Shown: positions 96 through 43,950 of the stretch, piece by piece
Layout of the letters: each line of letters opens with the position of its first letter
Numbering within the stretch: the first letter of the stretch is position 1
Source: Deltaproteobacteria bacterium
Lineage (GTDB): Bacteria; Desulfobacterota; GWC2-55-46
DNA: 64,000 bases
Direction of reading: 5' to 3'
NCBI GenBank assembly: GCA_016213015.1
Contig: JACRCE010000063.1
Coordinates: 39 to 64,038, forward strand
Notes under the pieces: generated by a model
Seen by the model: only the letters and a program-made list of their open reading frames with translations
Databases searched by the model: none
Told to the model about the DNA's origin: nothing
Made by a program: the position numbers and the translations under genes

Positions 96-114
96 AAGAC
101 CTCCAATTTTTAGA
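96..114. repeat. Solo terminal-repeat-like copy (CCAATTTTTAGAGGCAATC) of the MITE-like element family seen at 7485-7698 and 21094-21392
   Basis: 16 of 18 identity to the reverse complement of the left terminus GTTGCCTCTAAAAATTGC of the full copies. Confidence 0.35.
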
Positions 115-712
115 GGCAATCTTCAAACCATGCCTTGAACTTTTTCAGCGCCTGCCCCCTGTGGCTTATCATGTTCTTCTCGTCAAGGCTTAATTGGGCA
201 ACTGTCTTTTGAAGGCTTGGGATGTAAAACACCGGGTCGTAGCCGAAACCGTTCGGCCCGGACGGAGCCTCGGCGATTGTTCCTTCAAGTGCGCCGTCAA
301 ACGTATGAACCGTTGCATCGGACTTGTCAGGCTTGGTAAACGCGACTACGCAGACAAAACGCGCTGTTCTTTTGCCGGGCGGGACCCCGGACAGCTCTGC
401 AAGGAGCTTCCTCCAATTATCCTCATCGGTTGCGCCCTCTCCGGCGTATCTCGCGGAATACACGCCGGGAGCGCCTAAGAGATAGTCAACCTCAAGCCCT
501 GAGTCGTCGGCAAGGCACTCGCACTGAAGAGCCTCGGCGACAAAGCGCGCCTTTGCAGTTGCGTTGGCCGCAAAGGTGGTCCCTGTTTCAGGCGGGAGTT
601 CAAGGATCGCAAAGTCGAGCATGGAGAGCACTTGGACCCCAGCGGGTTCAAGAAGCCTTTTTATCTCAGCGGCTTTGCCTTTGTTTTTCGTGGCAACGAC
701 AATCTTGTTCAA
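110..712 (-). CDS. rdgB: Non-canonical purine NTP pyrophosphatase (RdgB/HAM1 family, dITP/XTP pyrophosphatase)
   Basis: 200 aa. The N-terminal VVATKNKGKAAE, FGYDPVF, and the C-terminal RGQA motif and overall length match the Ham1/RdgB family. Confidence 0.9.
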   Translation of the reverse strand: MNKIVVATKNKGKAAEIKRLLEPAGVQVLSMLDFAILELPPETGTTFAANATAKARFVAEALQCECLADDSGLEVDYLLGAPGVYSARYAGEGATDEDNWRKLLAELSGVPPGKRTARFVCVVAFTKPDKSDATVHTFDGALEGTIAEAPSGPNGFGYDPVFYIPSLQKTVAQLSLDEKNMISHRGQALKKFKAWFEDCL

Positions 713-721
713 GGGGTTTGA

Positions 722-1513
722 TTATTTCGCGCCTTTTGCGAGTTGAGCGGACGTCTTCAGAAAGACCTCTATGCCGTTGTATAACGATTGGGCGATGCGC
801 GTTTGCTCGGCCTCCTGCTTTAATCTCTTTTCATCGGCCTTGTTCGATATGAAGCCTATCTCCACGAGCGCGGCGGGCATGGCCGCGCCGTTCAAGACTA
901 TGAAGGGCGCCTGTTTTACGCCGCGGTCCGGGCTGCCGCCTCCGGCAAGAAGGCTTGTCTGCACGGCCTCCGCAAGCCGCGCGCTTTCATGGTGCGCCCC
1001 GGTTATGACGAGGTCGAGGAGTATGTCATTCAGATCGTCGGATGTAACGGAAGGGTTCTTCATCGCCCCTGCGGAATTTTCAAAATCGGCAAGGCGTTGC
1101 GCCTCGGCGTCCGTGGCGTCAACGCTCAGGAAAAACGTCTCCACCCCGGTTGCCGCCTTCCTGCGCGCCGCGTTGACGGGGATGCTCACGAACAGGTCGG
1201 CGTTAAGCGCGTTGGCAACGGCAACGCGCTTGGCAAGCGGTACGAATGTGTCGTCTGCGCGGGTAAGCGTTACGTCGCAAAGCGTCTTGGCCTTTATCAG
1301 TTCAGCGGTCTTTTTCGCCACGGCGAGCGTTACGTCCTTTTCATTGACGCCGGCAGGGCCAGTTGCGCCGGTGTCCTCCCCGCCGTGTCCGGGGTCAAGA
1401 ACCACGACGCAAGCCCTGTCAACGGGCAATGCAATAGGGTCAAGCGCAAGGGCAACGCGGCTGAATAGAAAAACGGCCGCAACAACGGGAAAGACGATCA
1501 GCAACCTTTTCAT
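722..1513 (-). CDS. N-acetylmuramoyl-L-alanine amidase (Amidase_3, AmiC-like), secreted
   Basis: 263 aa with an N-terminal signal peptide. VVLDPGHGGEDTGA is the zinc-binding motif of Amidase_3, and the C-terminal catalytic region is conserved. Confidence 0.85.
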   Translation of the reverse strand: MKRLLIVFPVVAAVFLFSRVALALDPIALPVDRACVVVLDPGHGGEDTGATGPAGVNEKDVTLAVAKKTAELIKAKTLCDVTLTRADDTFVPLAKRVAVANALNADLFVSIPVNAARRKAATGVETFFLSVDATDAEAQRLADFENSAGAMKNPSVTSDDLNDILLDLVITGAHHESARLAEAVQTSLLAGGGSPDRGVKQAPFIVLNGAAMPAALVEIGFISNKADEKRLKQEAEQTRIAQSLYNGIEVFLKTSAQLAKGAK

Positions 1514-1790
1514 GAGGGTATTTTAGGATTTGCGGCGGGGTATGTCAACCCGCCTTTTTTGCGGGGGGTAAAGGAATAGATAGAACCGAACTCTTTATTA
1601 TCATTTTGGCTGGACATGGGAAAAACAGCAACAATGCCCCACCGGCATATATGCGTCGAAATCACCGCCATCAGATGGCGGTCTTTACGGCAAGTCAACT
1701 CTAATTGTTGAGGATAATAGAGTCGTTAAACAGCGGCTGTAGTCGTTATTGCAGGTGTACGATAAGTTCAGCCACATTATATGAATTTAC

Positions 1791-1818
1791 TTGACAAAAG
1801 ATTGGGGGGGGGTAAAAT
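1791..1818 (+). promoter_or_regulatory. Sigma70-like promoter TTGACA-N16-TAAAAT whose spacer contains a G9 homopolymer (1804-1812)
   Basis: Near-consensus -35 and -10 hexamers are visible directly. The 16-nt spacer is made largely of nine G residues. The promoter faces the downstream + strand secreted and repeat-protein genes. Confidence 0.5.
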
Positions 1819-1969
1819 AGCGACGAAAAATAAGAGATAAATATGTGAAGCCGTTTCTTCATGGACGGCGTTGCCAACTACGGACAAAATCCGGTTTGAC
1901 AGTTAAAACGATATCTATGGGGTTGCCCTGAGAGGGTAATCGTGAAAGACCAAAGAAAATGAGAAGAAC

Positions 1970-2236
1970 ATGAAAATCATTACAAGCATTGCTGTTTCGC
2001 TTTTGCTGACACTAACTGCATTTTCACCTGCCGGAGCGTCGGATCTGCTCGTGCAAGCACCGATTCTGTTTCCGACACAGGAACAATCTGATGATGCCAT
2101 TTTAACCGAGACTAATGGAGTGGTGGAGGAAACAAGAAACACTGAAATACCCGCCGAAAGAATAGATGAGCCAACAGCGGCAACTAGCGTGCATGGCAAA
2201 GTGCCCGAATTGCCGTCCCATACCTACATGAAATAA
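1970..2236 (+). CDS. Small secreted acidic protein of unknown function
   Basis: 88 aa ORF with a clear signal peptide (MKIITSIAVSLLLTLTAFSPAGA), preceded by an RBS-like GAGAAG, in a low-GC region. Confidence 0.5.
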   Translation: MKIITSIAVSLLLTLTAFSPAGASDLLVQAPILFPTQEQSDDAILTETNGVVEETRNTEIPAERIDEPTAATSVHGKVPELPSHTYMK

Positions 2237-2242
2237 TAATAT

Positions 2243-3214
2243 ATGAGGAGGCGACTGAACATGAAAAAGCATATAGTTTTAGCGGCATTGTTCATACTGC
2301 TGATACCGGCGCTTGGCTTTGCCGCTTTCTATGCGGATACCGATGGCGACGGATATACGGACCAGGTTTATGCGTGCGGCAGCCCTGTTCAGGTATGTAT
2401 ATATCATCCTCGCACAGGCGTGACAACGATGTACCGCAACGGTGCGGCCTCTTCTTTCAGTATCAATTCGGTTGTGGACACGGATGGGGTTGCAGGCGCT
2501 GAAGTAGTGGTTGTATGGACATCCACGTATGGTAATCCAAAGGGGATAGATATCATCAGGGACAGAAACCGTACCACAACGACATACGATTATACAAACA
2601 ACCCTTCCTTCAACATCAATTCGGTTGTGGACACGGATGGCAATGTTGGAGGTGAAATTGTCGTGCTATGGACATATGCCGGGGGCCCAAACCATGGGCT
2701 TGATGTGATCCATGATGCACAACGCAACAAGTACACATACGACTACTCTACAGCCTCTTCCTTTTCCATCAACTCGGTGGTTGACACGGACAATACGGCA
2801 GGCTGAGAAATAATAGTCCTATACACAACAACATGGGGCGAGAGAGGCATACATGCCATACATGACAGGACAAGGACAAGAAATGTCTATCTCTATACCT
2901 ATAAGGGTACCTTTGAGATCGCATCGGTTTCAGACACTGATGGAGTCGGCGGTATGGAGATCATAGTGAAATATCCGACAGGCACATATTCAACTGGCGC
3001 AACAAAGGGCATAGATGTAATCCATGACATAAACCGGACAACGAATATCTATGACTTCACAAGCCAATACTTTTTCAGCATACAAGCAATCAGAAACTAT
3101 GATGGCATCTCAGGCAACGAGGTTTGCAGCTATTGGGAAAGATACCCAAGCTACGGGTACAAGCTGATTACCGACAGGACAAGGAGCTTTCAGGATCGCG
3201 CCAATTGCAACTGA
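2243..3214 (+). pseudogene. Secreted repeat protein (about five copies of a 48-aa unit SINSVVDTDG..G.E.VV.WT...G..GID.I.D..R.T.TYDY; FG-GAP/VCBS-like calcium-binding DxDxDG motifs) interrupted by an in-frame TGA at 2804-2806
   Basis: ORFs 2243-2806 and 2954-3214 are in the same frame, and the repeat unit continues uninterrupted across the TGA and through 2807-2953. The stop aligns with an Ala/Gly/Met position of the repeat. A signal peptide is present. Confidence 0.6.
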
Positions 3215-3306
3215 CGGCATCTCGTATGGAAACGACTGACATATGTTTTCAGGCAATATATTTTTCTTGCTTCAAGCGCGGCCTTGTGTAACATGAATAG
3301 GGCAAT

Positions 3307-3759
3307 ATGCGGTTTTTTATAAAGAAATATGGAGGTGAGGCGATGCAACGAATCATCAATGGCGCGGTCAACAAGGCTGTGTTCTTGCTTTTTTTTCTTT
3401 CATTTTTCATTCCGAGCGGCTCTGGTGCGAACGGCAACGACATCATAAAATGCAAGTCATTGGATACAAGGGAGTTCGGACTGATAAACGACGGCAACAT
3501 AGGCGAGCCGTGGAGCGAAGCGCAGATTATTGATAAATACGGGCAGCCATGTCAGATAATAAACATGGGAGAGGTCTTTGTAACGAAAAGCCATGTAAAA
3601 ATAATTGAACTGGATGCTAAGACCGGCGCGCAAGGCAAAACAACCTCTGGAGAAATTGCCGTGAAAAAGCAGTTTGTCTATAAGGGAGACTATTCAAACA
3701 AGGCCACGATAATCACAATTGTTGGCGGTGTTGTTGTAAAAACAGAAAGGATAGATTAG
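3307..3759 (+). CDS. Secreted hypothetical protein
   Basis: 150 aa ORF (probable start MQRIINGAV at 3343) with a hydrophobic signal segment, in a low-GC region. No recognisable domain. Confidence 0.45.
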   Translation: MRFFIKKYGGEAMQRIINGAVNKAVFLLFFLSFFIPSGSGANGNDIIKCKSLDTREFGLINDGNIGEPWSEAQIIDKYGQPCQIINMGEVFVTKSHVKIIELDAKTGAQGKTTSGEIAVKKQFVYKGDYSNKATIITIVGGVVVKTERID

Positions 3760-3950
3760 CTGTCCCGTCATATCTCCGCTGGAATACCAATCCTTTAATA
3801 TTGACCGCATCGTTTTATACCTCCATTCACACTAAAATCGCTACCCGTTTCCATAGCGCCATTACACTCTTTCCTTCAAGAACGCCGCGCACCGTGGTAT
3901 ACTAAAAAATTCTGGTTTTTCGGACGGCTAATCCATAGCGACACAAGAGC

Positions 3951-6900
3951 ATGCTCCAAAAAGATACAATCGAGTCTAACGACGGCCCTTGTTCCATGAA
4001 GGCGCTCCTGCCGCGCTTGATCGCGCTTGGCGCGTTTGACCGCAACGAGGCCGTTACGGTTTCCGTGCTTTTCGGCTCGTCAAAGGCGCTGCTCATAGCT
4101 TCGGTTTTTCGAGGAGGGGCAAAGCCGCACCTTGTCATTCTCAAGGACGAGGAAGCGGCCTCTGAGATGGCCGTTGACCTCCGGTTTTTCCTCGGCAAGG
4201 ACAGCGTACTTTTTTATCCGTCCACCGAGACATTACCGTTTGAACTCGACCCGCCGCATGAGGACATAAGCGCCGAGAGGGTCGCCGCGCTCCACAGCTT
4301 TACGCTTGGATCGTCGGTCGTCGTGGTTGCGGCTGTCTCTACGCTTATGCAACGCCTGCCGCCTAAGGCTGACTTTACGGCCAAGGCGCTGAACCTTCGC
4401 GTTGGGGGGGAGTATCCGAGGGAGGCGCTCATCGAGACCCTGAGCAACATGGGCTACGCGAGGATGAGCATGGTTGAGGAGCGCGCCGAGATGAGCGCGC
4501 GCGGAGGCATCCTTGATATATTTCCGCCCGCGAAAGATCGTCCGCTGAGGCTGGAGTTTTTCGGCGACGAGCTCGAATCGATCAGGAGTTTCGACATCGC
4601 CACGCAAAGGTCGCTCACGGAACTCAAGGAGGCGCTTATCCTGGCGGCACGGGAGGCCTCGCCCGACAAAGAGATACTTTCAACGGCCAGAGATAGGCTT
4701 ATCGACAGGGCCGATGCGCTCGGGTTGGACAGGCTTTCATGGGAGGCGCTCTCGGACAGGCTCAAGGCGGGCGCGTCAGGTCTTGGCCTGTCGCCGCTCT
4801 TGCCGTTGTTGTACGACAGGCTCGACACTATTTTCGACTATCTTGGGTCAAACGCCGTCATTACGGTAGTTGACCCCGAGGCTGTTAAAACCGCGGCTCA
4901 GGGTTTTGCCAAGGATGTGTCCGCTATAGCCGCAAAGGCCGTTGAAAAGAGGCGTTTTTTCGCGGAGCCGGCCGAGTTGTATATCTCTCCCGACGCCTTT
5001 TTGAAGGCGATAAACGTCTTTTCGCTTATCAACGTGGAGCCTGTGATGGAGGCTGGTTTCGTCATCGGCGCAAGCGCGAGATTAAATATCGCCATGCGGC
5101 ATGACCTGAATGTTTCAATCGGTGGAAAGGGAAGTACGGTTCTTGAGACCCCGCTTGCCCCTCTTGCTTCGATGCTCAAAGACAGGCTTGAGGCCGGATG
5201 CCGCGTCTGGATCAGCGCCCACAACAAGGGACAGGCCGAGCGCACAAAGGAGTTGCTTGAAGGCTATGGTCTGGCCGTCAGCCAAGGGTTTTCCTTTGAC
5301 GTGGACCCGCTCAACGCGCCTCTTGGCGCGCTTTGCGTGGTCATCGGCTCGATAACGTCCGGGTTTTATCTTGAAATGGACCGTTTCTGGCTCATATCCG
5401 AGGAGGAGGTTTTCGGGGAGCGCGTAAAGGCAAGGACACCTCCTGCAAGAAAGCTTGACGCCTTTTTAAGACAGTTGCAGGAGTTGTCCGACGGCGACCT
5501 TGTGGTGCACAAAGACCACGGCATCGGCCTTTGCAGGGGTCTTAAAAGGCTGGGCATTGACGACGTTGAGAATGATTTTCTCCTGCTTGAGTACAGGGAT
5601 GGCGACAAGCTCTACCTGCCGGTATGGAGGCTTGATCTTATAAGCAGGTACAAGGGTTCGGGAGGACAAACCCCTGAGCTTGACAAGCTTGGGGCAAAGA
5701 ATTGGGAAAAGAGAAAAAAGAAGGTCGGGGCAGCCGTTGAAAGATTCGCGGGGGAACTCTTGAATCTCTACGCTCAAAGACAGAGCGCCGTGGGCTTCAG
5801 CTTCTCGCCTCCCGACAGAATATTCGAGGAGTTCGAGGCGGGCTTCGACTTCGAAGAAACGCCGGATCAGAAAAACGCCATTGCCGAGACGCTTGCGGAT
5901 ATGAGAAGCGACAGGCCTATGGACAGGCTTATCTGCGGCGACGTGGGCTACGGCAAGACCGAGGTTGCGATGCGGGCCGCCTTCAAGGCCGCCCTTGACA
6001 ACAAGCAGACCGCGATCCTCGTGCCCACGACGATATTGGCCGATCAGCACTTCAACACATTTTCGAGAAGGTGCGCGCCGTTCCCGGTAAAGATCGGCGT
6101 CCTGTCCCGCTTCAAGACGGCAAAGGAGCAAAGGGAGACGATCGCTTCAATAGCGCTGGGCGAGGTCGACATCGTCATCGGCACGCACAGGCTTTTACAA
6201 AAAGACGTAACGTTCAAGGACTTGGGCCTTATAGTAATCGACGAGGAGCATCGTTTCGGCGTGGCGCATAAGGAACGCTTGAAACACCTGAGAAAAAACG
6301 TAGACTGCCTGACGCTTACGGCCACGCCCATACCGAGAACCCTGAACTTGTCCATTGCGAGCATAAGGGAGTTGTCCATCATAAGCACCCCGCCGGTAGA
6401 CAGGCTTGCGATAAAGACCAGCGTGGCGAGGTTCGATCCCGAAATAATAGCCGAGGCGCTGGAGCGGGAGTTCAAGCGCGGGGGACAGGTCTTCTTCGTT
6501 CATAACAGGGTCGAGTCCATCGGCGCGATGGAGAGGTTTCTAAGGGAGGTTGCGCCAAAGGCGCGCATAGCCGTGGCGCACGGGCAGATGAAGGAGCACG
6601 AGCTTGAGCGAAAGATGCTCGGCTTCGTCAACAAGGACTACGACTTGCTGTTGTGCACCACCATAATAGAGTCCGGCCTCGACATACCGTCGGCCAACAC
6701 CATCATAATAAACCGCGCCGACAGGTTCGGTCTGGCCGAGTTGTACCAGTTGAGGGGAAGGGTCGGCAGAAGCAGCCACAGGGCATACGCCTATCTTTTA
6801 TGCCCTGATTCGGGATCCATGAGCGCTGACGCCGTAAAGCGTCTGGAGGTGATACGCGAGCTTGCCGAACCGGGTTCGGGCTTCTCTCTCGCCTCTTATG

Positions 6901-7472
6901 ACCTTGAGATACGCGGGGCGGGCGAGCTGCTTGGACAGGCGCAGGCCGGCCAGTTCGCGGACGTGGGCTTTGACATGTACGCGACCCTCCTTGAAGACGC
7001 GGTAAGGGAGTTGAGGGGCGAAGCGTTGCCCGACAGCAGCGAGCCGGACGTAAACCTGAGGGTGTCGCAGTATATACCCGAGGAGTACATCCCCGACGCA
7101 AGGGAGAGGCTCGGCCTTTACCAGAGGCTCTCAAGTATTGCGACGGACGACGATATATATCTCCTGAACGATGAGTTGAGCGACAGGTACGGGGACCCTC
7201 CAGCGCTCGTGGGCAACCTCCTTCGCACCGCTTCGTTAAGGATCGTCCTGAAGCGTCTCAAGGCAACGGAGTTCAAGCAGATAGGAGATAGACTGTATAT
7301 AACCTTTGCCAAAGGCGTTGGCCCGGAGATAGGCGATAGGGCGTTAAACCTCGTCAAGAAAGAACCAAAGCGATACAGGATAGCGCCGGATTCAAGGCTG
7401 ATAATCTCCATAGACAAGGACGCGGACCCGCTTGAGACGGCGAAATTTGTGTTGAAAGAGTTGGAGGGCTGA
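3951..7472 (+). CDS. mfd: Transcription-repair coupling factor Mfd (superfamily 2 helicase)
   Basis: 1173 aa. The UvrB-homology N-terminus, the RNAP-interaction domain, helicase motifs (GDVGYGKTEVA, DEEHRFGV, TATPIPRTL, QLRGRVGR) and the TRCF C-terminal domain are present. The true start may be the internal Met at about 3996. Confidence 0.95.
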   Translation: MLQKDTIESNDGPCSMKALLPRLIALGAFDRNEAVTVSVLFGSSKALLIASVFRGGAKPHLVILKDEEAASEMAVDLRFFLGKDSVLFYPSTETLPFELDPPHEDISAERVAALHSFTLGSSVVVVAAVSTLMQRLPPKADFTAKALNLRVGGEYPREALIETLSNMGYARMSMVEERAEMSARGGILDIFPPAKDRPLRLEFFGDELESIRSFDIATQRSLTELKEALILAAREASPDKEILSTARDRLIDRADALGLDRLSWEALSDRLKAGASGLGLSPLLPLLYDRLDTIFDYLGSNAVITVVDPEAVKTAAQGFAKDVSAIAAKAVEKRRFFAEPAELYISPDAFLKAINVFSLINVEPVMEAGFVIGASARLNIAMRHDLNVSIGGKGSTVLETPLAPLASMLKDRLEAGCRVWISAHNKGQAERTKELLEGYGLAVSQGFSFDVDPLNAPLGALCVVIGSITSGFYLEMDRFWLISEEEVFGERVKARTPPARKLDAFLRQLQELSDGDLVVHKDHGIGLCRGLKRLGIDDVENDFLLLEYRDGDKLYLPVWRLDLISRYKGSGGQTPELDKLGAKNWEKRKKKVGAAVERFAGELLNLYAQRQSAVGFSFSPPDRIFEEFEAGFDFEETPDQKNAIAETLADMRSDRPMDRLICGDVGYGKTEVAMRAAFKAALDNKQTAILVPTTILADQHFNTFSRRCAPFPVKIGVLSRFKTAKEQRETIASIALGEVDIVIGTHRLLQKDVTFKDLGLIVIDEEHRFGVAHKERLKHLRKNVDCLTLTATPIPRTLNLSIASIRELSIISTPPVDRLAIKTSVARFDPEIIAEALEREFKRGGQVFFVHNRVESIGAMERFLREVAPKARIAVAHGQMKEHELERKMLGFVNKDYDLLLCTTIIESGLDIPSANTIIINRADRFGLAELYQLRGRVGRSSHRAYAYLLCPDSGSMSADAVKRLEVIRELAEPGSGFSLASYDLEIRGAGELLGQAQAGQFADVGFDMYATLLEDAVRELRGEALPDSSEPDVNLRVSQYIPEEYIPDARERLGLYQRLSSIATDDDIYLLNDELSDRYGDPPALVGNLLRTASLRIVLKRLKATEFKQIGDRLYITFAKGVGPEIGDRALNLVKKEPKRYRIAPDSRLIISIDKDADPLETAKFVLKELEG

Positions 7473-10697: not shown

Positions 10698-11111
10698 CTA
10701 TTTTGCCATAAGGAAACCCTTTGCCTTTGCGGCAAATTCATGGACATCCGGGATATTCTTTTTGACGGTTACTACGTTTTGCCAGTTCATTTTAAGATAC
10801 TGATGGATCGTCTCGTTTCTATGTTTTGTCAAGGGCGCTATTCTTAAAACTATTTCTCCGAGGAGTTCGTGGCAGGCTAAAACCGTATCTTTATAGGTGT
10901 CTGGAATTGACAGTTTCTTGTTCTTCAGGCATTCTTCGGCGATATCCACAATGCTAAGGATCAAGTCGTTCACTGTTTTATCGAGTATATTTCTGCTGTC
11001 CCGGTCCGCAAAATATCTGTCTCTGTCGATGTTTTCGGCTTTGACGATGAAATATACGGCTGTTTCTTCAAGAAATGCAATGAGCCTTTCCGCTTTGATT
11101 TCAGGCTTCAT
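10698..11111 (-). CDS. hepT: HepT-family HEPN toxin (DUF86, nucleotidyltransferase substrate-binding protein-like) of a HepT/MntA toxin-antitoxin pair
   Basis: The R-x4-H-x-Y HEPN motif (KHRNETIHQY) lies near the C-terminus; about 137 aa from Met MKPEIK. It overlaps the upstream mntA-like gene by about 11 bp. Confidence 0.75.
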   Translation of the reverse strand: MKPEIKAERLIAFLEETAVYFIVKAENIDRDRYFADRDSRNILDKTVNDLILSIVDIAEECLKNKKLSIPDTYKDTVLACHELLGEIVLRIAPLTKHRNETIHQYLKMNWQNVVTVKKNIPDVHEFAAKAKGFLMAK

Positions 11112-11496
11112 ACGCCGTTTCTCTCCTGAACCTGATACCTTCCGATTCGTGCAGAACACGGTCGCTTAATTCATACAACTTATCCCTGTCCGGCTCTATC
11201 AAAGGTCTTCCTTTTAGCGCCTCCTGAATGACAAACGGCGATTCGTCGCCATCGTCCAAAAAAAGTATCTCGACTTCCTTGTCAGAGGCCATCAATATCC
11301 TGTCAACGGCCTCTATCCTCGCGTCTTCGTCTTGACTGTTCAGGTAAACTGCAATGTCTATGTCGGAGCGCAAATGCGCTTTGCCCTTGGCATAAGAGCC
11401 GTACAGATATGCAAGCAGGATTGCCCCTTCTCTCTGCAATTCCTCCAAGACTCGTTTTATCCGTTGTATTTCATCTTTTTCAGCGGTTATGTCCAT
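11101..11496 (-). CDS. mntA: MntA-type minimal nucleotidyltransferase antitoxin
   Basis: GSYAKG...SDIDIAV is the G-S-x(n)-D-x-D motif of minimal nucleotidyltransferases; about 130 aa from Met MDITAEK. It lies upstream of hepT, as is typical. Confidence 0.75.
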   Translation of the reverse strand: MDITAEKDEIQRIKRVLEELQREGAILLAYLYGSYAKGKAHLRSDIDIAVYLNSQDEDARIEAVDRILMASDKEVEILFLDDGDESPFVIQEALKGRPLIEPDRDKLYELSDRVLHESEGIRFRRETAYEA

Positions 11497-11598
11497 GGCC
11501 GGAAAATAACATATGGACGTAAATATTACAAGTGGAACATAAGGAGGAAACACCCGTTGCCGCTGTACAAGACGGCATCTGCTCCAGTTGTTGCGTAT

Positions 11599-17505: not shown

Positions 17506-18663
17506 ATGAAAAAGAAACGCCTCATATTTGTCGTTGCGGGGGGGATAGCCGCAGTCATCGTTGCAAGCGCGGTTTTTTTCTCCGTTCGCAGTAACGGCTT
17601 CGATGCGCCTGCATATAAGATCATAAAGGCCGCTAAGGGCGAGCTTAGGATTGAAGTCCTTGCGACCGGGGTCGTCGTGCCTGAGACCGAGGTGGTCGTC
17701 AAGAGCAAGGCCGGCGGCGAGATAACGCGCTTTCCCTTCCACGAGGGAGACCTGCTTGAAAAGGGCGTAGTCGTGGCGAGGCTCGACCCCAAGACCGAGC
17801 TTGCAAGGAAGAATCAGGCCGAGGCGAATCTTTTGGTAACTCAGGCGCGCCTCAACAAGGCGCGCATTTCCTATAAAGACGCGGACATGCGCCTCAAGCG
17901 CCAGAATAAGCTTTTTGAGGACGGCATAATCTCCAGACAAGACCTTGACGACGCCGAGATCGCCTTTGAAAAGGCCGGAAGCGACGTAAAGATCGCGGAG
18001 GCCGAGCTGAGCCAATCGCAAGAGGCGCTCAACGAGGAACGGGAGCGTCTTGCGGACACCGAGATAAAGGCGCCGTTTACCGGAACCATGCTGAGGAAGT
18101 TCGTTGACGCGGGGCAGGTCATATCCTCGTCCATGTCCTCCTTTTCGGACGGGACTCAGCTTTTCAGCATGGCCAACCTTGAAAAGATATACGTTGACGC
18201 GATGGTTGACGAGGTTGACATAGGCAGGGTCATCGCCGGTCAGGAGGCAAGCGCGACGATTGAATCGCTTCCCGGCGTAATATTCAGCGGCACGGTGGAG
18301 CGCATATCTCCAAAGGGCGAGGTCCAGCGCACGGTAACGGTCTTCAAGGTCTTTGTGCGCGTAAACGACAAGAACAAGGCCATGCTCAGGCCCGGCATGA
18401 CCGCCGACGTGAGGATACTTGCCGGACTCAGCAAGGATTCGCTCCTCATACCCAACGAGGCGTTGAAGCTCAAGAACGGCAAGAGCGGCATCTATGTCCT
18501 TGCGGGAGATGAGCCCGCGTGGCGCGAGATAAAGACCGGAAAGACCGACGGCCTTCAGACCGAGGTGACAAGCGGGCTCAAGGAAGGCGAGATCGTAGTA
18601 ACCTCCGGCATGATTAATGACGCGGCACATAAGGCACAGAGGAGGCGGTTCGTGATATTTTAG
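17506..18663 (+). CDS. macA: Efflux transporter periplasmic adaptor subunit (membrane fusion protein, MacA/HlyD family)
   Basis: N-terminal TM anchor, biotinyl-lipoyl-like and coiled-coil hairpin regions, and beta-barrel domains. Confidence 0.85.
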   Translation: MKKKRLIFVVAGGIAAVIVASAVFFSVRSNGFDAPAYKIIKAAKGELRIEVLATGVVVPETEVVVKSKAGGEITRFPFHEGDLLEKGVVVARLDPKTELARKNQAEANLLVTQARLNKARISYKDADMRLKRQNKLFEDGIISRQDLDDAEIAFEKAGSDVKIAEAELSQSQEALNEERERLADTEIKAPFTGTMLRKFVDAGQVISSSMSSFSDGTQLFSMANLEKIYVDAMVDEVDIGRVIAGQEASATIESLPGVIFSGTVERISPKGEVQRTVTVFKVFVRVNDKNKAMLRPGMTADVRILAGLSKDSLLIPNEALKLKNGKSGIYVLAGDEPAWREIKTGKTDGLQTEVTSGLKEGEIVVTSGMINDAAHKAQRRRFVIF

Positions 18664-18715: not shown

Positions 18716-19453
18716 ATGAAAAAATATTCGAAGGCGCCCATTGAAGAGGCCGTTTTTGACATCAAAATAGACCCTGCCCTATCTATTGAAGGCAAGGATT
18801 TGGAGTCCTTGTACACAAAGGTTTCAGACCGCTATCCTATAAAGGAAATTCTAAGAACATCCGAGGTAATTAGTGAAGTAAAGGATGGAGAATTAGCAAA
18901 TGTTCAGGCAAGAAGCAAGGGAGTGGTGGGTTTTCGTTTTTGGGATAAAGAACGTAAGCAGGTATGCAATTTCGGATTGGACGGTTTCAATTTCAGCCGT
19001 TTGAGGCCATATAGCGGATGGGAAGACTGTTTTCCAGAGGCGATGAGATTATGGGGTGTTTATAAAGCGGACTTCAACCTCCATCATATCAAGCGGGTCG
19101 CCGTTCGATTCATCAATATTATCAAAATTACGGAAACTCGATTTGAACTTGCCGATTATTTTAATAACCCGCCAGCCCCCCCGACAGGGCTTCCGCAGGA
19201 TTTGACGGAATTTTTTTCACGTTTAAGAGTACGATATGAGGACGGTTATTTTGCAATTATTACCCTTGCCATACAAATGCCCGCTGAGCCAAATACCGCC
19301 TCGATACTGTTGGACATAGACGTATGCACGGAGACGCCTTTTGAAGCGGTTGATGAAGGCCGGCTTGAAAAAATCTTTGAACGCCTCCGGCATATCAAAA
19401 ATGATGTCTTTGATAAGAGCATCACACAAAAAACCAAGGAACTCATAAAATGA
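18716..19453 (+). CDS. Hypothetical protein, first gene of a low-GC three-gene cassette (the N-terminus KAPIEEAVFDIKID is reminiscent of the uncharacterised TIGR04255-type family)
   Basis: 245 aa; GC is visibly lower (about 42-45%) than the flanking genes; its stop overlaps the next start (ATGA). Confidence 0.55.
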   Translation: MKKYSKAPIEEAVFDIKIDPALSIEGKDLESLYTKVSDRYPIKEILRTSEVISEVKDGELANVQARSKGVVGFRFWDKERKQVCNFGLDGFNFSRLRPYSGWEDCFPEAMRLWGVYKADFNLHHIKRVAVRFINIIKITETRFELADYFNNPPAPPTGLPQDLTEFFSRLRVRYEDGYFAIITLAIQMPAEPNTASILLDIDVCTETPFEAVDEGRLEKIFERLRHIKNDVFDKSITQKTKELIK

Positions 19454-19947
19454 TAGACATGGCGCTTGTCCAAGTTGCTTTTAACCGTGACAATGCAAGA
19501 CCTGTAGTTGTTTGCGAAGCGGCAAAAGGAACCAACGACGAGCTTTTCCGTAGCGCGTTCCTTGACACGCCTTCAATACTCTTTAGCTGGCGTTTAAGGC
19601 TTAAAAACAGGATATACACCTTAGCTAAGGACTGTTCTTCCGAAGGGTGGAATGGCGAGGGCGCTTTTCCTATGTCAAGTGAGGCGATTAACGCGGCCGA
19701 GCGTTTTATAGACCTTTTGCCGGAAGGCGTTATGGAACCGTCCATCACCGTTGAAAACACAGGCGATATGGCATTCGATTGGGACATCGGAGCGGATATG
19801 ACCTTTACCGTTATCGTATCAAGAGACCGCGCCGTTTATGCCGGTATATTCGGCGATTCAAGACGACGCGGCACGGAAAGGATTCACAGCGAACTCCCCG
19901 GCACAATCAAAGACGTGCTGTTGGCGTACTTTAGAAAGAAAACCTGA
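19450..19947 (+). CDS. Hypothetical protein, second gene of the cassette
   Basis: 165 aa, translationally coupled on both sides; no recognisable motif. Confidence 0.5.
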   Translation: MIDMALVQVAFNRDNARPVVVCEAAKGTNDELFRSAFLDTPSILFSWRLRLKNRIYTLAKDCSSEGWNGEGAFPMSSEAINAAERFIDLLPEGVMEPSITVENTGDMAFDWDIGADMTFTVIVSRDRAVYAGIFGDSRRRGTERIHSELPGTIKDVLLAYFRKKT

Positions 19948-22840: not shown

Positions 22841-23704
22841 ATGAAGATACCGGTTGAACTATTGCTCGGCGACTGCAAAGAGGCGCTCAAAAACCTCTCC
22901 GATGATTCAATAGACCTGATATTCACCTCTCCGCCCTACGCCGACAGCCGCAAAAACAGCTACGGCGGAATTCATCCTGATAGGTACGTTTCATGGTTCC
23001 TGCCGGCATCGAAGGAGTTGTTAAGGGTCTTAAAACCGGCGGGGACGTTTGTCTTAAACATAAAGGAAAAGGTGGTTGAGTCCGAACGCCACACCTACGT
23101 CTGCGAACTGATACTTGAGATGAAAAAACAGGGATGGCTTTGGACCGAAGAGTTCATCTGGCACAAGAAAAATTGCTACCCCGGCAAATGGCCCAACAGA
23201 TTTCGTGATTCATGGGAGAGGCTTTTGCAGTTTAACAAGCAAAAGAGGTTCAACATGTATCAGGAGGCCGTCATGGTTCCGACTGGAGACTGGGCAAAGG
23301 ACAGGTTAAGGAATCTGAGCGAAACCGACAGGACCCGCGATAATGCTAAAAACGGCAGCGGATTCGGAAAAAACGTTTCCAATTGGCTCAACAGGGACAG
23401 GGCATATCCAACGAATGTCCTGTATCTGGCGACCGAGTGCGGCAATAAAAACCATAGCGCGGCATTTCCCAAGGCGCTTCCCGAATGGTTTATAAAACTT
23501 TTCACAAAGCAGGGAGATTCGGTGCTCGACCCCTTCATGGGTTCGGGAACAACCGTGCTCACGGCATGCGGCATGAACAGGAGGGCAATCGGGATTGAGA
23601 TTCACCCGCAATACTATAAATCCGTTCAAAACATGCTGAGTCTGCAAAAAAAAACCGCGCCGGAAAGAGCCAATGAGAAGATCCAGATCGCTCTCTTTAG
23701 ATGA
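22841..23704 (+). CDS. Site-specific DNA methyltransferase, beta-class (N4-cytosine or N6-adenine), of a type II restriction-modification system
   Basis: Catalytic motif DLIFTSPPY near the N-terminus and AdoMet motif VLDPFMGSGTT near the C-terminus. Confidence 0.85.
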   Translation: MKIPVELLLGDCKEALKNLSDDSIDLIFTSPPYADSRKNSYGGIHPDRYVSWFLPASKELLRVLKPAGTFVLNIKEKVVESERHTYVCELILEMKKQGWLWTEEFIWHKKNCYPGKWPNRFRDSWERLLQFNKQKRFNMYQEAVMVPTGDWAKDRLRNLSETDRTRDNAKNGSGFGKNVSNWLNRDRAYPTNVLYLATECGNKNHSAAFPKALPEWFIKLFTKQGDSVLDPFMGSGTTVLTACGMNRRAIGIEIHPQYYKSVQNMLSLQKKTAPERANEKIQIALFR

Positions 23705-24434
23705 CATAACGGCCTATGTTAAAAAGAACGTGGGGGTGTTTCATGAAAACCGCCTGCGGAGTCTTCAAGGTTTGAAGCTGAATAGTGTAATCCCTCGGAA
23801 AAACCCATACCTTTTCAAAGCCAAGCATATCCTGAGCGCGAACGATTTTGTAAAGCTGATACTTGACGCGCATCTGTCATCGCAGGAAGAAACCATATTT
23901 GGAGACTTTCTCGAAGGTCTGTCCATCCATGTTTGCAGTAAGGTTTACGGCGGCAGGAAATCTTCCGCCGAAGGCATTGATTTGGAATTGGAAAAGGGCG
24001 GCAATAGATATATAGTGGCCATAAAATCCGGGCCTAACTGGGGAAACAGCTCTCAAATAAGAAAGATGCGGGAAGATTTCAAACGCGCAAAAAAGATTAT
24101 AAGGACCTCCGCGCCGTCAACGGCCGATGAAAACATCGTGGCCGTAAATGGCTGCTGTTACGGCAGGGACTCATCCCCGGACAAGGGCGACTATTTCAAG
24201 CTCTGCGGTCAGAGATATTGGGAGTTTATCTCCGGACGCTGTGATTTATTTACGACGATAATCGAGCCGCTTGGCGCCAAGGCTAAAGAGAAAAACGAGA
24301 AGTTCGTACGCGCCTACTCAAGGATGATAAACAAGTTTACCGCATCGTTTATACGCGATTTTTGCATAGACGGACGGATAAACTGGGAAGGCATCGTGAA
24401 GTTTAACTCGGCGGTTGAAAGATCGGATATTTAG
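23673..24434 (+). CDS. Putative cognate type II restriction endonuclease (PD-(D/E)XK-like)
   Basis: 253 aa overlapping the methyltransferase gene by 32 bp; a candidate PD...(D/E)xK core GIDLELEK; lower GC than the backbone. Confidence 0.5.
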   Translation: MRRSRSLSLDDITAYVKKNVGVFHENRLRSLQGLKLNSVIPRKNPYLFKAKHILSANDFVKLILDAHLSSQEETIFGDFLEGLSIHVCSKVYGGRKSSAEGIDLELEKGGNRYIVAIKSGPNWGNSSQIRKMREDFKRAKKIIRTSAPSTADENIVAVNGCCYGRDSSPDKGDYFKLCGQRYWEFISGRCDLFTTIIEPLGAKAKEKNEKFVRAYSRMINKFTASFIRDFCIDGRINWEGIVKFNSAVERSDI

Positions 24435-39963: not shown

Positions 39964-40392
39964 ATGATAGACATTAAGGAGATTCAGACCATACTTCCCC
40001 ACCGCTACCCGTTTCTGCTCATTGACAAGATAGTCGAGTTGGACCCGGGCAAATACGCGAAGGGGATAAAAAACGTTACCATAAACGAGCCGTTTTTCCC
40101 GGGGCATTTTCCGGGGCATCCGATAATGCCGGGCGTCCTCATAGTCGAGGCAATGGCGCAGGTCGGGGGGGTGCTGGCCTTCAAGTCCGCCGACGTTTCC
40201 AACAAGGTCGTATACTTCATGGGCATTGACAAGGCGCGGTTCAGAAAGCCGGTGCTCCCTGGGGATACGCTTGAACTGTCGCTCACCGTGACTAAGTGCA
40301 GGGGCAGCATCTGGGGCTTTAAGGGCGAGGGGCGCGCCGCGGGCGTCCTCGTCGCCGAGGCCGAGTTTCTTGCGACCATCATGGAAAGGTAA
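39964..40392 (+). CDS. fabZ: 3-hydroxyacyl-ACP dehydratase
   Basis: Start MIDIKEI..LPHRYPFLLIDKI; hotdog-fold motifs. Confidence 0.9.
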   Translation: MIDIKEIQTILPHRYPFLLIDKIVELDPGKYAKGIKNVTINEPFFPGHFPGHPIMPGVLIVEAMAQVGGVLAFKSADVSNKVVYFMGIDKARFRKPVLPGDTLELSLTVTKCRGSIWGFKGEGRAAGVLVAEAEFLATIMER

Positions 40393-42255: not shown

Positions 42256-43950
42256 ATGGACGTCACGCGCAATATGGATAGTCCGAAACTCCAGAACCTC
42301 ATCCGCGAACTTGTTTCTCTTCCTAACGAAACAGAGTGGCTTGAGTTCAAGAAAAACCATTGCGAACCGCAATTGCTGGGAAAGTACCTCTCAGCCCTGT
42401 CAAATTCCGCGTGTCTTCATGACAAGCCAAAGGGCTATCTTATCTTTGGTATCGAAGATAAGACTCACGCGGTAATAGGGACGGACTTCAACCCGGCCAA
42501 AACCAAGGCCAAAGGCAATCAGGACCTTAGCATATGGCTTTCGACCCGCTTACGTCCGAATGTTGGTTTTGACATATCCACTCTTGAATATGACGGCAAG
42601 CCGACAGTGATATTTGCCGTTAATCCCGCCATTGATCAGCCCGTTACTTTTTGCGGAACGGCTTACATACGCATCAGTTCGAACACGACGGAACTGGCAA
42701 AATATCCGGTAAAAGAGCGCGAAATCTGGAATCGTAGACACAGGGTGGATTGGTCGGCCGGGGTATGCGAAAAGGCGGCGATAGATGACTTGGACCCGGA
42801 GGCTATAAAGAAGGCCCGTGTTGAATACATAACCAAGTTCCCATCAAAAGCATCTGAAGTAAACGGATGGGATGACATGCAATTCCTAAACAAGATAAAA
42901 CTAACTATCAAGGGCAAGATCGCCAATTCCGCGGTTTTGTTGCTTGGCAAGTCGGAATCCGCGCCGCTCATCAATCCAGCCGTCGCGAAAATCACATGGG
43001 TTTTGAAAGACGAGAAAAATATGGAGAAGGATTATGAGCATTTTGGCCCGCCTTTCATATTGAATGTCGAACGCGCCTTTGCCAAAATCAGAAACCTGAC
43101 TTACCGGCATATGCCGAGCGGCACGCTTTTTCCCATTGAAGTAACACAGTACGACCGTTGAGTCATAAGAGAGGCGCTTCACAACTGTATTGCTCACCAA
43201 GATTATAGTATGTCTGGACGGATCAATCTGGTGGAGACTCCTACATCTCTGACGTTGACGAACATGGGGAGCTTTCTTCCCGGAAGCGTTGAAAATGTAA
43301 TCAGGCAAGATGCCCCTCCTGAGACTTATCGGAATCTATTTCTTGCGGATGCCATGGTCAATTTGAACATGATTGACACTCAGGGCGGAGGCATCAAGAA
43401 GATGTTTCAGACCCAGATGAAGCGGTACTTTCCAATGCCCGATTACGACCTTGGCCAACCCGACCGAGTGGTTGTGAAGATTCAGGGTCAGGTGCTTGAT
43501 GAAAGATATACACGGCTTTTGATGGAGCGCACCGATCTTGACCTTTGGACAGTGATACTTTTGGATAAGGTACAAAAAAGAATCCGCATATCGCTGGAAG
43601 AATGTAAAAAGCTCAAGGGTATCAGAGCAGTTGAAGGGAGATACCCAAACATTTTTGTTTCATCATCCGTTGCGGCCGCAACGGATGATGAAGCACAGCA
43701 TATACGGAATAAAGGGTTGGAAACAACATATTATAAGCAGATTATAATACAACTCATTCAAGAGCACGGCCCTGTGAGCCGTGAAAAAATAGATCAACTT
43801 CTTTTGGATAAATTGCCGGAAGTGCTTACTGAAAAACAGAAGAAGAGCAGGATAAGCAACTACCTTACGAATCTTATCGGCGAAGGGATTATTGAAAATA
43901 CAGGCACAAATAGGTATCCGCAATGGCTTATGAAGAATAATAAAAAATAA
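42256..43950 (+). pseudogene. AlbA_2 (Schlafen-like divergent AAA) plus HATPase_c_4 protein (putative ATP-dependent DNA-binding regulator) interrupted by an in-frame TGA at 43159-43161
   Basis: ORFs 42256-43161 and 43210-43950 are in the same frame. Translation continues directly after the TGA with VIREALHNCIAHQDY, the conserved (RE)A..N...H.DY motif that normally lies mid-protein. Lower GC; AT-rich flank. Confidence 0.6.

Follow-up and report, generated by a model that had tools for sequence, protein, structure and literature searches.

We examined a promoter-like element whose spacer ends in nine consecutive G residues (G9), together with the cluster of three genes for putative secreted proteins that lies downstream of it, in a 64,000-nucleotide (nt) stretch of contig JACRCE010000063.1 from a Deltaproteobacteria bacterium (assembly GCA_016213015.1; the whole stretch is hereafter referred to as the window). 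Comparison with two sister species revealed that the length of the G tract, and with it the distance between the -35 and -10 hexamers, differs between species but is the same in all assemblies within each species. In our judgement the chances are about evenly balanced that the tract acts as a lineage-level setting of the strength of a weak, probably activator-dependent promoter, and not as a fast on/off switch. According to this explanation, the first two genes of the cluster would most likely be transcribed from a sigma-70-type promoter, in which an ordinary 17-nt spacer was replaced by a poly-G tract in the clade formed by the three species (A, to which the window belongs, B and C). Slipped-strand changes would then have reset the spacing in each lineage, to 15 nt in species B, 16 nt in species A and 22 nt, with an interrupting T, in species C, all of which are sub-optimal. 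The resulting weak core promoter would probably depend on factors bound to a conserved upstream block, and the 16-nt state found in this genome is predicted to be partly active. Here the operon appears to be decaying, its main gene inactivated by a recent GGG-to-TGA change and the ribosome-binding site of its first gene weakened.

Loci of relatives were identified through exact-protein look-ups and a pattern scan, and tract lengths within species were read from consensus assemblies. Species A is represented by two assemblies, the window and a 99.97% identical Logan contig (L001; SRR12113407). Species B, at ~86% nucleotide identity to the window, comprises ten assemblies and at least five haplotypes, drawn from Hainich groundwater wells H32 and H52, three ERR38581xx runs, ERZ1300416 and ERZ2470813 (ENA) and one GenBank metagenome-assembled genome (MAG), while species C comprises two assemblies (GCA_040960175 and SRR25508632). 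A more distant homologous operon (L003) was also recovered, encoding an 80-amino-acid (aa) partner and a repeat protein, the predicted beta-propeller described below, with 73% identity to that of the window. When JGI metagenome contigs were scanned for the exact promoter pattern, no matches were returned; among GTDB genomes the same pattern returned one true relative (L004, a species B locus with G8) and three chance matches lacking a G tract. A protein-guided metagenome scan added a single distant locus, with no tract there.

Several lines of evidence support, at the level of sequence, the view that the hexamers behave as a genuine promoter of the sigma-70 type. Positions 1791-1818 of the forward strand read TTGACA-AAAGATTGGGGGGGGG-TAAAAT, a match to the consensus at 11 of 12 positions, with the -35 hexamer at 1791-1796, the -10 hexamer at 1813-1818, and the G9 homopolymer (1804-1812) occupying the 3' end of the 16-nt spacer (1797-1812), exactly where an earlier model-generated annotation of this DNA (the sequence-only reading) had placed it. 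Promoter matches of at least 11/12 with a spacer of 16-18 nt occur five times in the window against 0.3 expected, which makes an E. coli-like consensus meaningful here; the remaining four matches all possess a 17-nt spacer, leaving the G-tract promoter as the sole exception. The -35 hexamer is shared without change by species A, B and C and by L003; the -10 hexamer is likewise unchanged in species B, and species C has TAGTAT/TATACT in its place. In the equivalent position, L003 carries TTGACA, 17 nt and TAAAAA together with a TGn motif; its spacer is AT-rich and non-repetitive and lacks a G tract, which supports the promoter assignment and shows that the tract is derived within the clade of species A, B and C. 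A sigma-54 reading of the same region (GG...GC across the tract) was also considered and rejected, the GC being absent from species C.

Considered alone the run is unremarkable, since ~0.6 G/C runs of nine or more are expected per 64 kb from dinucleotide composition, and shuffled sequences are expected to contain approximately three G8 words. Its placement inside a strong promoter, together with its conservation in sister species, argues that the combination is not due to chance. Both species A assemblies (2/2) carry G9 and a 16-nt spacer, and all ten species B assemblies (10/10) carry G8 and a 15-nt spacer. In species C the tract reads G6-T-G8, such that TTGACA lies 22 nt from TAGTAT or 25 nt from TATACT, the -10 region having diverged. 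The promoter cores of species A and B are identical except for one G, and over the next 44 nt of the leader a single substitution and a 2-nt indel separate them. Given that tract length differs among species while the flanks in A and B are near-identical, the tract changes over evolutionary time and must alter the spacing of the hexamers, and it would thereby be expected to influence expression. Two of the species B loci (L009 and L010, from ERZ1300416 and ERZ2470813), assembled at ~4x coverage, contain a propeller frameshift at a T5 run (equivalent to window positions ~3068-3072) and further frameshifts in rdgB, mfd and pdxA. Assembly error probably accounts for these, and the homopolymer lengths of both loci are to be read with caution, though each reads G8.

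The sequence-only reading had proposed that the locus is phase-variable, and this proposal fared unevenly: tract length does differ between species, but it is invariant across the consensus assemblies available within them (10 for species B, 2 for A and 2 for C). Were phase variation truly reversible, slippage would be frequent and cells with 15-, 16- and 17-nt spacers would express the propeller operon stochastically at low, medium or high levels, with assemblies showing only the dominant, mostly low state. We regard this as a real but doubtful possibility. The G8 and G9 tracts sit exactly within the spacer of a conserved strong promoter, their length differs between sister species with identical flanks, and the homopolymer has remained uninterrupted between A and B despite a synonymous divergence of ~0.45, all of which speaks for such switching. 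At nine units the tract also reaches the length typical of porA-type phase variation (at least ~7-8 units between the -35 and -10 elements), its cargo genes encode secreted proteins, as judged by eye from their signal peptides, and in the porA precedent the gain or loss of one G alters transcription (PMC3899988). Yet the tract is constant in the ten species B and two species A assemblies while other short repeats vary: single-nucleotide polymorphisms, the number of units in a (CAG)n repeat and the length of a G run in the leader (G4 or G5) distinguish the species B haplotypes, with G8 unchanged throughout, and no contig breaks at the tract. Nor was a 17-nt spacing seen in any lineage of species A, B and C (16, 15 and 22 nt), species B being two G residues short of it and species C five steps away and interrupted by a T. 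Further points against switching come from the wider genomic and biological context. Only one G/C run of eight or more exists in the 64-kb window, where four G7/C7 runs all fall inside long open reading frames (ORFs), with coding G7 runs at 4404-4410, 17538-17544 and 40165-40171, and a set of several contingency tracts was not found, and no G/C run of seven or more lies upstream of the other PA5033-family loci examined (L024, L025-L030 and L031-L033). In addition, the organism is a free-living groundwater bacterium with no known selective regime for switching, its cargo protein is under strong purifying selection (ratio of non-synonymous to synonymous substitution, omega, ~0.1), and in this genome the propeller has been knocked out by a nonsense codon and not by the tract.

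Four considerations weigh against the lineage-level setting that we favour. Consensus assemblies hide minority tract lengths, so that fast switching with a dominant state is possible, and the persistence of uninterrupted G8 and G9 across ~0.45 synonymous divergence is also expected under selection for mutability. Furthermore, species C retains neither the spacing nor the -10 hexamer, such that one model may not fit all three species, and the backing for the promoter, itself a consensus match, consists of conservation. A clade-wide version of switching, in which a true contingency promoter has been kept and the species have been caught at G8, at G9 and at a locked G6-T-G8, with one lineage having silenced its cargo by a nonsense mutation, strikes us as rather doubtful.

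The region upstream of the hexamers bears on a further explanation, that they are not a working promoter or not the sole one. Transcription would in that case begin upstream, perhaps at TAGATA-16-TATCAT (1577-1604), whose conservation is weak, or would depend fully on an activator binding the conserved block; tract length would be irrelevant to spacing, and the G tract would represent a conserved leader element or a protein-binding or structural site. Although we consider this unlikely, it draws on the non-optimal spacing in all three species (15, 16 and 22 nt), whose genes are nevertheless strongly constrained, and on the loss of the -10 hexamer in species C. Roughly 200 bp upstream are also conserved and contain direct and inverted repeats, and TAGATA-16-TATCAT is the only other promoter-like site positionally common to the three species. 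That upstream site, however, matches the consensus at just 8-9 of 12 positions, whereas the G-tract site is one of the five 11/12 sites where 0.3 are expected, and the hexamers recur at the L003 operon with 17-nt spacing; a structured leader finds no RNA family or covariation to support it. Since the propeller is constrained although spacing is poor in every species, expression may well proceed by a route other than an optimal core promoter, as the activator dependence included in the lineage-level setting would allow.

The upstream conservation corresponds to a non-coding block at 1583-1790 (+ strand), with between-species identities of 86-96% over 1583-1700 and 79-87% over 1701-1790, values equal to or above those of the neighbouring coding DNA. 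Within it we identified a perfect 8-bp inverted repeat, ACCGCCAT-CAG-ATGGCGGT (1664-1682), forming a hairpin or palindrome, an 8-bp direct repeat, AGTCGTTA, in two copies 20 bp apart (1721-1728 and 1741-1748), and an imperfect palindrome, AAGTTCA-N11-TGAATTT (1764-1788), adjoining the -35 hexamer. We interpret these repeats as putative regulator-binding sites. Other candidate functions of the block were tried and set aside. An Rfam scan of 1400-4100 at E<=1 identified no family, and hence no riboswitch or known small RNA. A structured RNA was rejected after RNAalifold analysis of the three species returned a positive (unfavourable) covariation term, with a hairpin at 1646-1660 broken in species B. 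Of two short ORFs in the block, a 31-aa frame on the + strand (1617-1712) shows in-frame indels, but inspection found all 3/3 differences between A and C to be non-synonymous, and a 62-aa frame on the minus strand is frameshifted in species B. A CAG/CAA triplet run at ~1626-1634 differs by one unit among species B haplotypes (L008 versus L013). Downstream of the hexamers, assuming a putative transcription start near 1825, the predicted leader (1819-1969, + strand) would be ~145 nt long; its folding is ordinary (z = -1.2). At its end, species A has a weaker Shine-Dalgarno sequence for the first gene, AATGAG compared with AAGGAG in species B and C.

Selection on the genes themselves indicates that the propeller has been of use in the sister species. 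The propeller is the most constrained gene of its neighbourhood (omega ~0.1; synonymous divergence, dS, 0.17-0.28), compared with omega values of 0.17-0.31 and dS of 0.23-0.54 for rdgB, amiC, mfd and the two partner genes. Such strong constraint suggests that the propeller is expressed and useful in species B and C, despite their 15- and 22-nt spacings. In the window, by contrast with the repeat protein of ~320 aa announced by the sequence-only reading, the frame is interrupted at codon 182 by an in-frame TGA (2804-2806, + strand), which is GGG (Gly) in 12/12 related loci. The same TGA is present in the independent Logan assembly (L001), and the reading frame is thus cut after codon 181, such that a truncated product would keep approximately three of the six blades. 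Relative to species B, the codons beyond the stop have accumulated 12 synonymous and 3 non-synonymous changes (omega 0.06), and those preceding it have an omega of 0.04. This similarity of constraint on either side implies that the nonsense mutation is recent or, much less likely, that it is read through.

We therefore also weighed the idea that the gene remains functional, with the TGA decoded through selenocysteine insertion, reassignment to glycine or programmed read-through, and judge it very improbable. Purifying selection on the post-stop codons is what recoding would predict, yet the same low omega is equally expected of a very recent nonsense mutation. A hairpin beginning 12 nt past the TGA (z = -2.2) has been strengthened by a substitution specific to species A. 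Typical bacterial selenocysteine insertion sequence (SECIS) loops contain a G, whereas the loop of this hairpin, ACACAACAAC, does not. Relatives carry Gly, not Cys, at the aligned residue. Finally, TGA is the commonest ordinary stop in the window, ending 26/49 long ORFs, which argues for a standard genetic code, and selenocysteine incorporation or other recoding was consequently rejected. A recent loss of the main gene, in a lineage where the ribosome-binding site of the first has also deteriorated, fits the decaying operon envisaged above.

The three + strand ORFs of the cluster (1970-2236, 2261-3214 and 3343-3759) all begin with hydrophobic, signal-peptide-like N-termini, judged by eye in each case, in keeping with the secretion that the sequence-only reading expected of their products. 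The interrupted PA5033-family repeat gene (2261-3214; 317 codons) encodes a hydrophobic N-terminus ending in FA-AF, again as judged by eye, followed by six repeats. Its initial description as an FG-GAP/VCBS-like protein could not be maintained, the Pfam match to FG-GAP_3 (PF13517) being non-significant (E=0.079; 14 bits against a cutoff of 26.9). A significant match was instead obtained to the NCBIfam model NF052506 ('PA5033 family'), at 109.8 bits against a cutoff of 100 and spanning profile positions 33-283 of 284, using as query the window propeller with Gly in place of the stop codon. An AlphaFold2 model of a homologue (P0006; pLDDT 91.9) is all-beta with 24 strands, which fits six four-stranded blades. 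All significant fold matches in the PDB are beta-propellers, none of them close (TM-score 0.25-0.5), and a sequence search of the PDB found no relative. From these models we predict that the product of the middle gene is a six-bladed secreted beta-propeller. The family is small, with 619 cluster representatives at E<=1e-3 among 1.84 billion. Intact 317-aa orthologues occur in species B, and a 266-aa form occurs in species C, where the gene (L018, 4291-5091; L019, 2406-3206) lacks exactly one 51-aa repeat, which suggests that blades are gained or lost by recombination between repeats. Across relatives, lengths range from 251 to 419 aa, or ~5 to 8 blades.

Preceding the propeller, an 88-aa acidic protein (HY886_06400; 1970-2236, + strand) has a signal-peptide-like N-terminus, belongs to no known family, and is 82-85% identical in species B and C. 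The 80-aa protein of L003 is homologous to it (BLASTP E=7e-6), and because this homologue accompanies the propeller there, the 88-aa protein is a conserved propeller partner. The third gene (HY886_06415; 3343-3759, + strand) encodes a 138-aa protein, likewise with a signal-peptide-like N-terminus and without a known family, and possesses a good Shine-Dalgarno sequence, GGAGGTGA. A promoter-like CTGACA-17-TATTTT lies ahead of it at 3236-3264. Stand-alone homologues of this gene in other lineages are preceded by ~55 codons that match only the last propeller blade and its stop (L020, ~4690-4860; L021, 1-57; L022, ~150-315), remnants indicating that those lineages have lost the greater part of the propeller gene by deletion; one of these loci (L021) derives from the same sample as L001 (SRR12113407). 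Since these homologues stand alone with only the blade remnant before them, the 138-aa gene probably has its own promoter.

With regard to genomic context, the cluster lies between amiC (Amidase_3, AmiC-like; 722-1513, minus strand), which is followed by a Ham1/RdgB-family gene (rdgB; 110-712, minus strand), and mfd, a 1173-aa ORF (3951-7472, + strand) whose orthologues carry Mfd/TRCF domains. The order rdgB-amiC-[88 aa, propeller, 138 aa]-mfd is common to species A, B and C. In agreement with the AT-rich segment reported from the sequence alone, GC content falls to 0.43-0.50 across ~1500-3900, between amiC and mfd, compared with 0.55-0.63 on both flanks. The compositional check suggested in that reading gave a concordant result, the three cluster genes having a GC content of 0.44-0.47 and a GC content at third codon positions (GC3) of 0.43-0.52, below the 0.55-0.59 and 0.65-0.75 of most window genes; their low GC and GC3 are seen in all three species. 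The term "island", in the sense of a recent acquisition, proved untenable: composition is atypical, but the site is occupied alike in species B and C. A cluster that is syntenic and low in GC in three species is instead an ancestral feature of the clade and not a strain-specific island. Scanning the whole window found no tRNA, and no integrase ORF adjoins the cluster.

The cluster segment is one of five low-GC patches in the window, the others lying at 10698-11553, 22841-24434, 42256-43950 and 18716-19947. Their contents include, in this order, a toxin-antitoxin pair (HepT-like RNase and nucleotidyltransferase), an N6/N4 DNA methylase with an EcoO109I-type restriction enzyme, and Schlafen AlbA_2 and HATPase_c_4 proteins; the fourth of these patches holds two ORFs without a family, the first of which contains a C7 run (19176-19182). 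As these other patches hold typical acquired genes, low GC appears to mark acquired accessory DNA in this genome. The cluster may thus be understood as old, horizontally acquired accessory genes that are now vertically inherited by three sister groundwater species. PA5033-family genes in Nitrospiraceae and other MAGs (L025-L030, L028 and L031) occur in variable contexts, neighboured by TnsD, transposase-like (DUF772, DUF4096) and restriction-enzyme genes, with small family-less genes downstream, which suggests that the family travels on mobile DNA.

Divergent from the cluster, the amiC promoter (1520-1548, minus strand) combines the same two hexamers as the G-tract promoter with ordinary spacing (TTGACA-17-TAAAAT). 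It is kept in species C and also in species B, where it is displaced by an insertion of ~130 bp that separates it from the conserved block and leaves it abutting amiC. The promoter ends 6 nt before the start codon (TAAAAT-ACCCTC-ATG), and the amidase mRNA may accordingly be leaderless.

Placing the locus among characterized systems clarifies what is at stake in these alternatives. In Pseudomonas aeruginosa, PA5033 carries an export signal and is secreted. Its 6-7 repeats resemble those of a beta-propeller, the secretome of biofilms is enriched in it, and it has a part in the aminoglycoside tolerance specific to biofilms (PMC4334185; PMC3634840). The window protein resembles it in scoring above the NF052506 cutoff, and its homologue P0006 in its all-beta, 24-strand model. 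However, PA5033 has an AraC-like regulator as its partner and is biofilm-induced, whereas the window locus has no adjacent regulator and its partners are the 88-aa and 138-aa secreted proteins. To FG-GAP/VCBS propellers the likeness is confined to DxDxDG-like loops (DTDGDG, DTDGVAG) and a predicted propeller fold, and the PDB folds that match best belong to generic propellers (prolyl oligopeptidase, sortilin, kelch).

If the tract does mediate true switching, this locus would be among the few examples of simple-repeat phase variation in an environmental bacterium that is not host-associated, and porA-type phase variation would extend from host-adapted pathogens to bacteria of oligotrophic aquifers. 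Switching would further suggest that members of the PA5033 family are factors of the surface or matrix that are costly or are targeted, for instance by phages or predators, and would provide a functional handle on a family known only from the P. aeruginosa biofilm secretome and from phenotypes of antibiotic tolerance in biofilms. In the absence of switching, the locus would constitute an ordinary accessory cluster, unusual in its fixed promoter spacer. The gain would then be one of annotation, comprising a PA5033-family pseudogene in this MAG, a conserved 88-aa partner, synteny across three species and variable blade number.

Switches in which a repeat lies in the promoter spacer also include opc and Bordetella fim. 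In Haemophilus influenzae hifA/hifB, the divergent promoters overlap and contain TA repeats, whose number determines how far apart the promoter elements lie (PMC3899988). The arrangement described here differs in that the amiC promoter is separate, ~240 bp away, and has a normal 17-nt spacer, so that the tract does not control both genes. The closest parallel is offered by Neisseria meningitidis porA, where a poly-G tract lies between the -35 and -10 elements, and one G more or less shifts the spacing by 1 bp and changes transcription (PMC3899988). Both loci feature a G homopolymer of similar length in a sigma-70-type spacer ahead of a gene for an exported protein. Whereas porA lengths vary among isolates and within cultures, the lengths reported here are fixed per species in every assembly examined, no state reaches 17 nt, and the host is an uncultivated groundwater deltaproteobacterium. 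By analogy with porA, the locus is possibly a new member of the same class of poly-G promoters.

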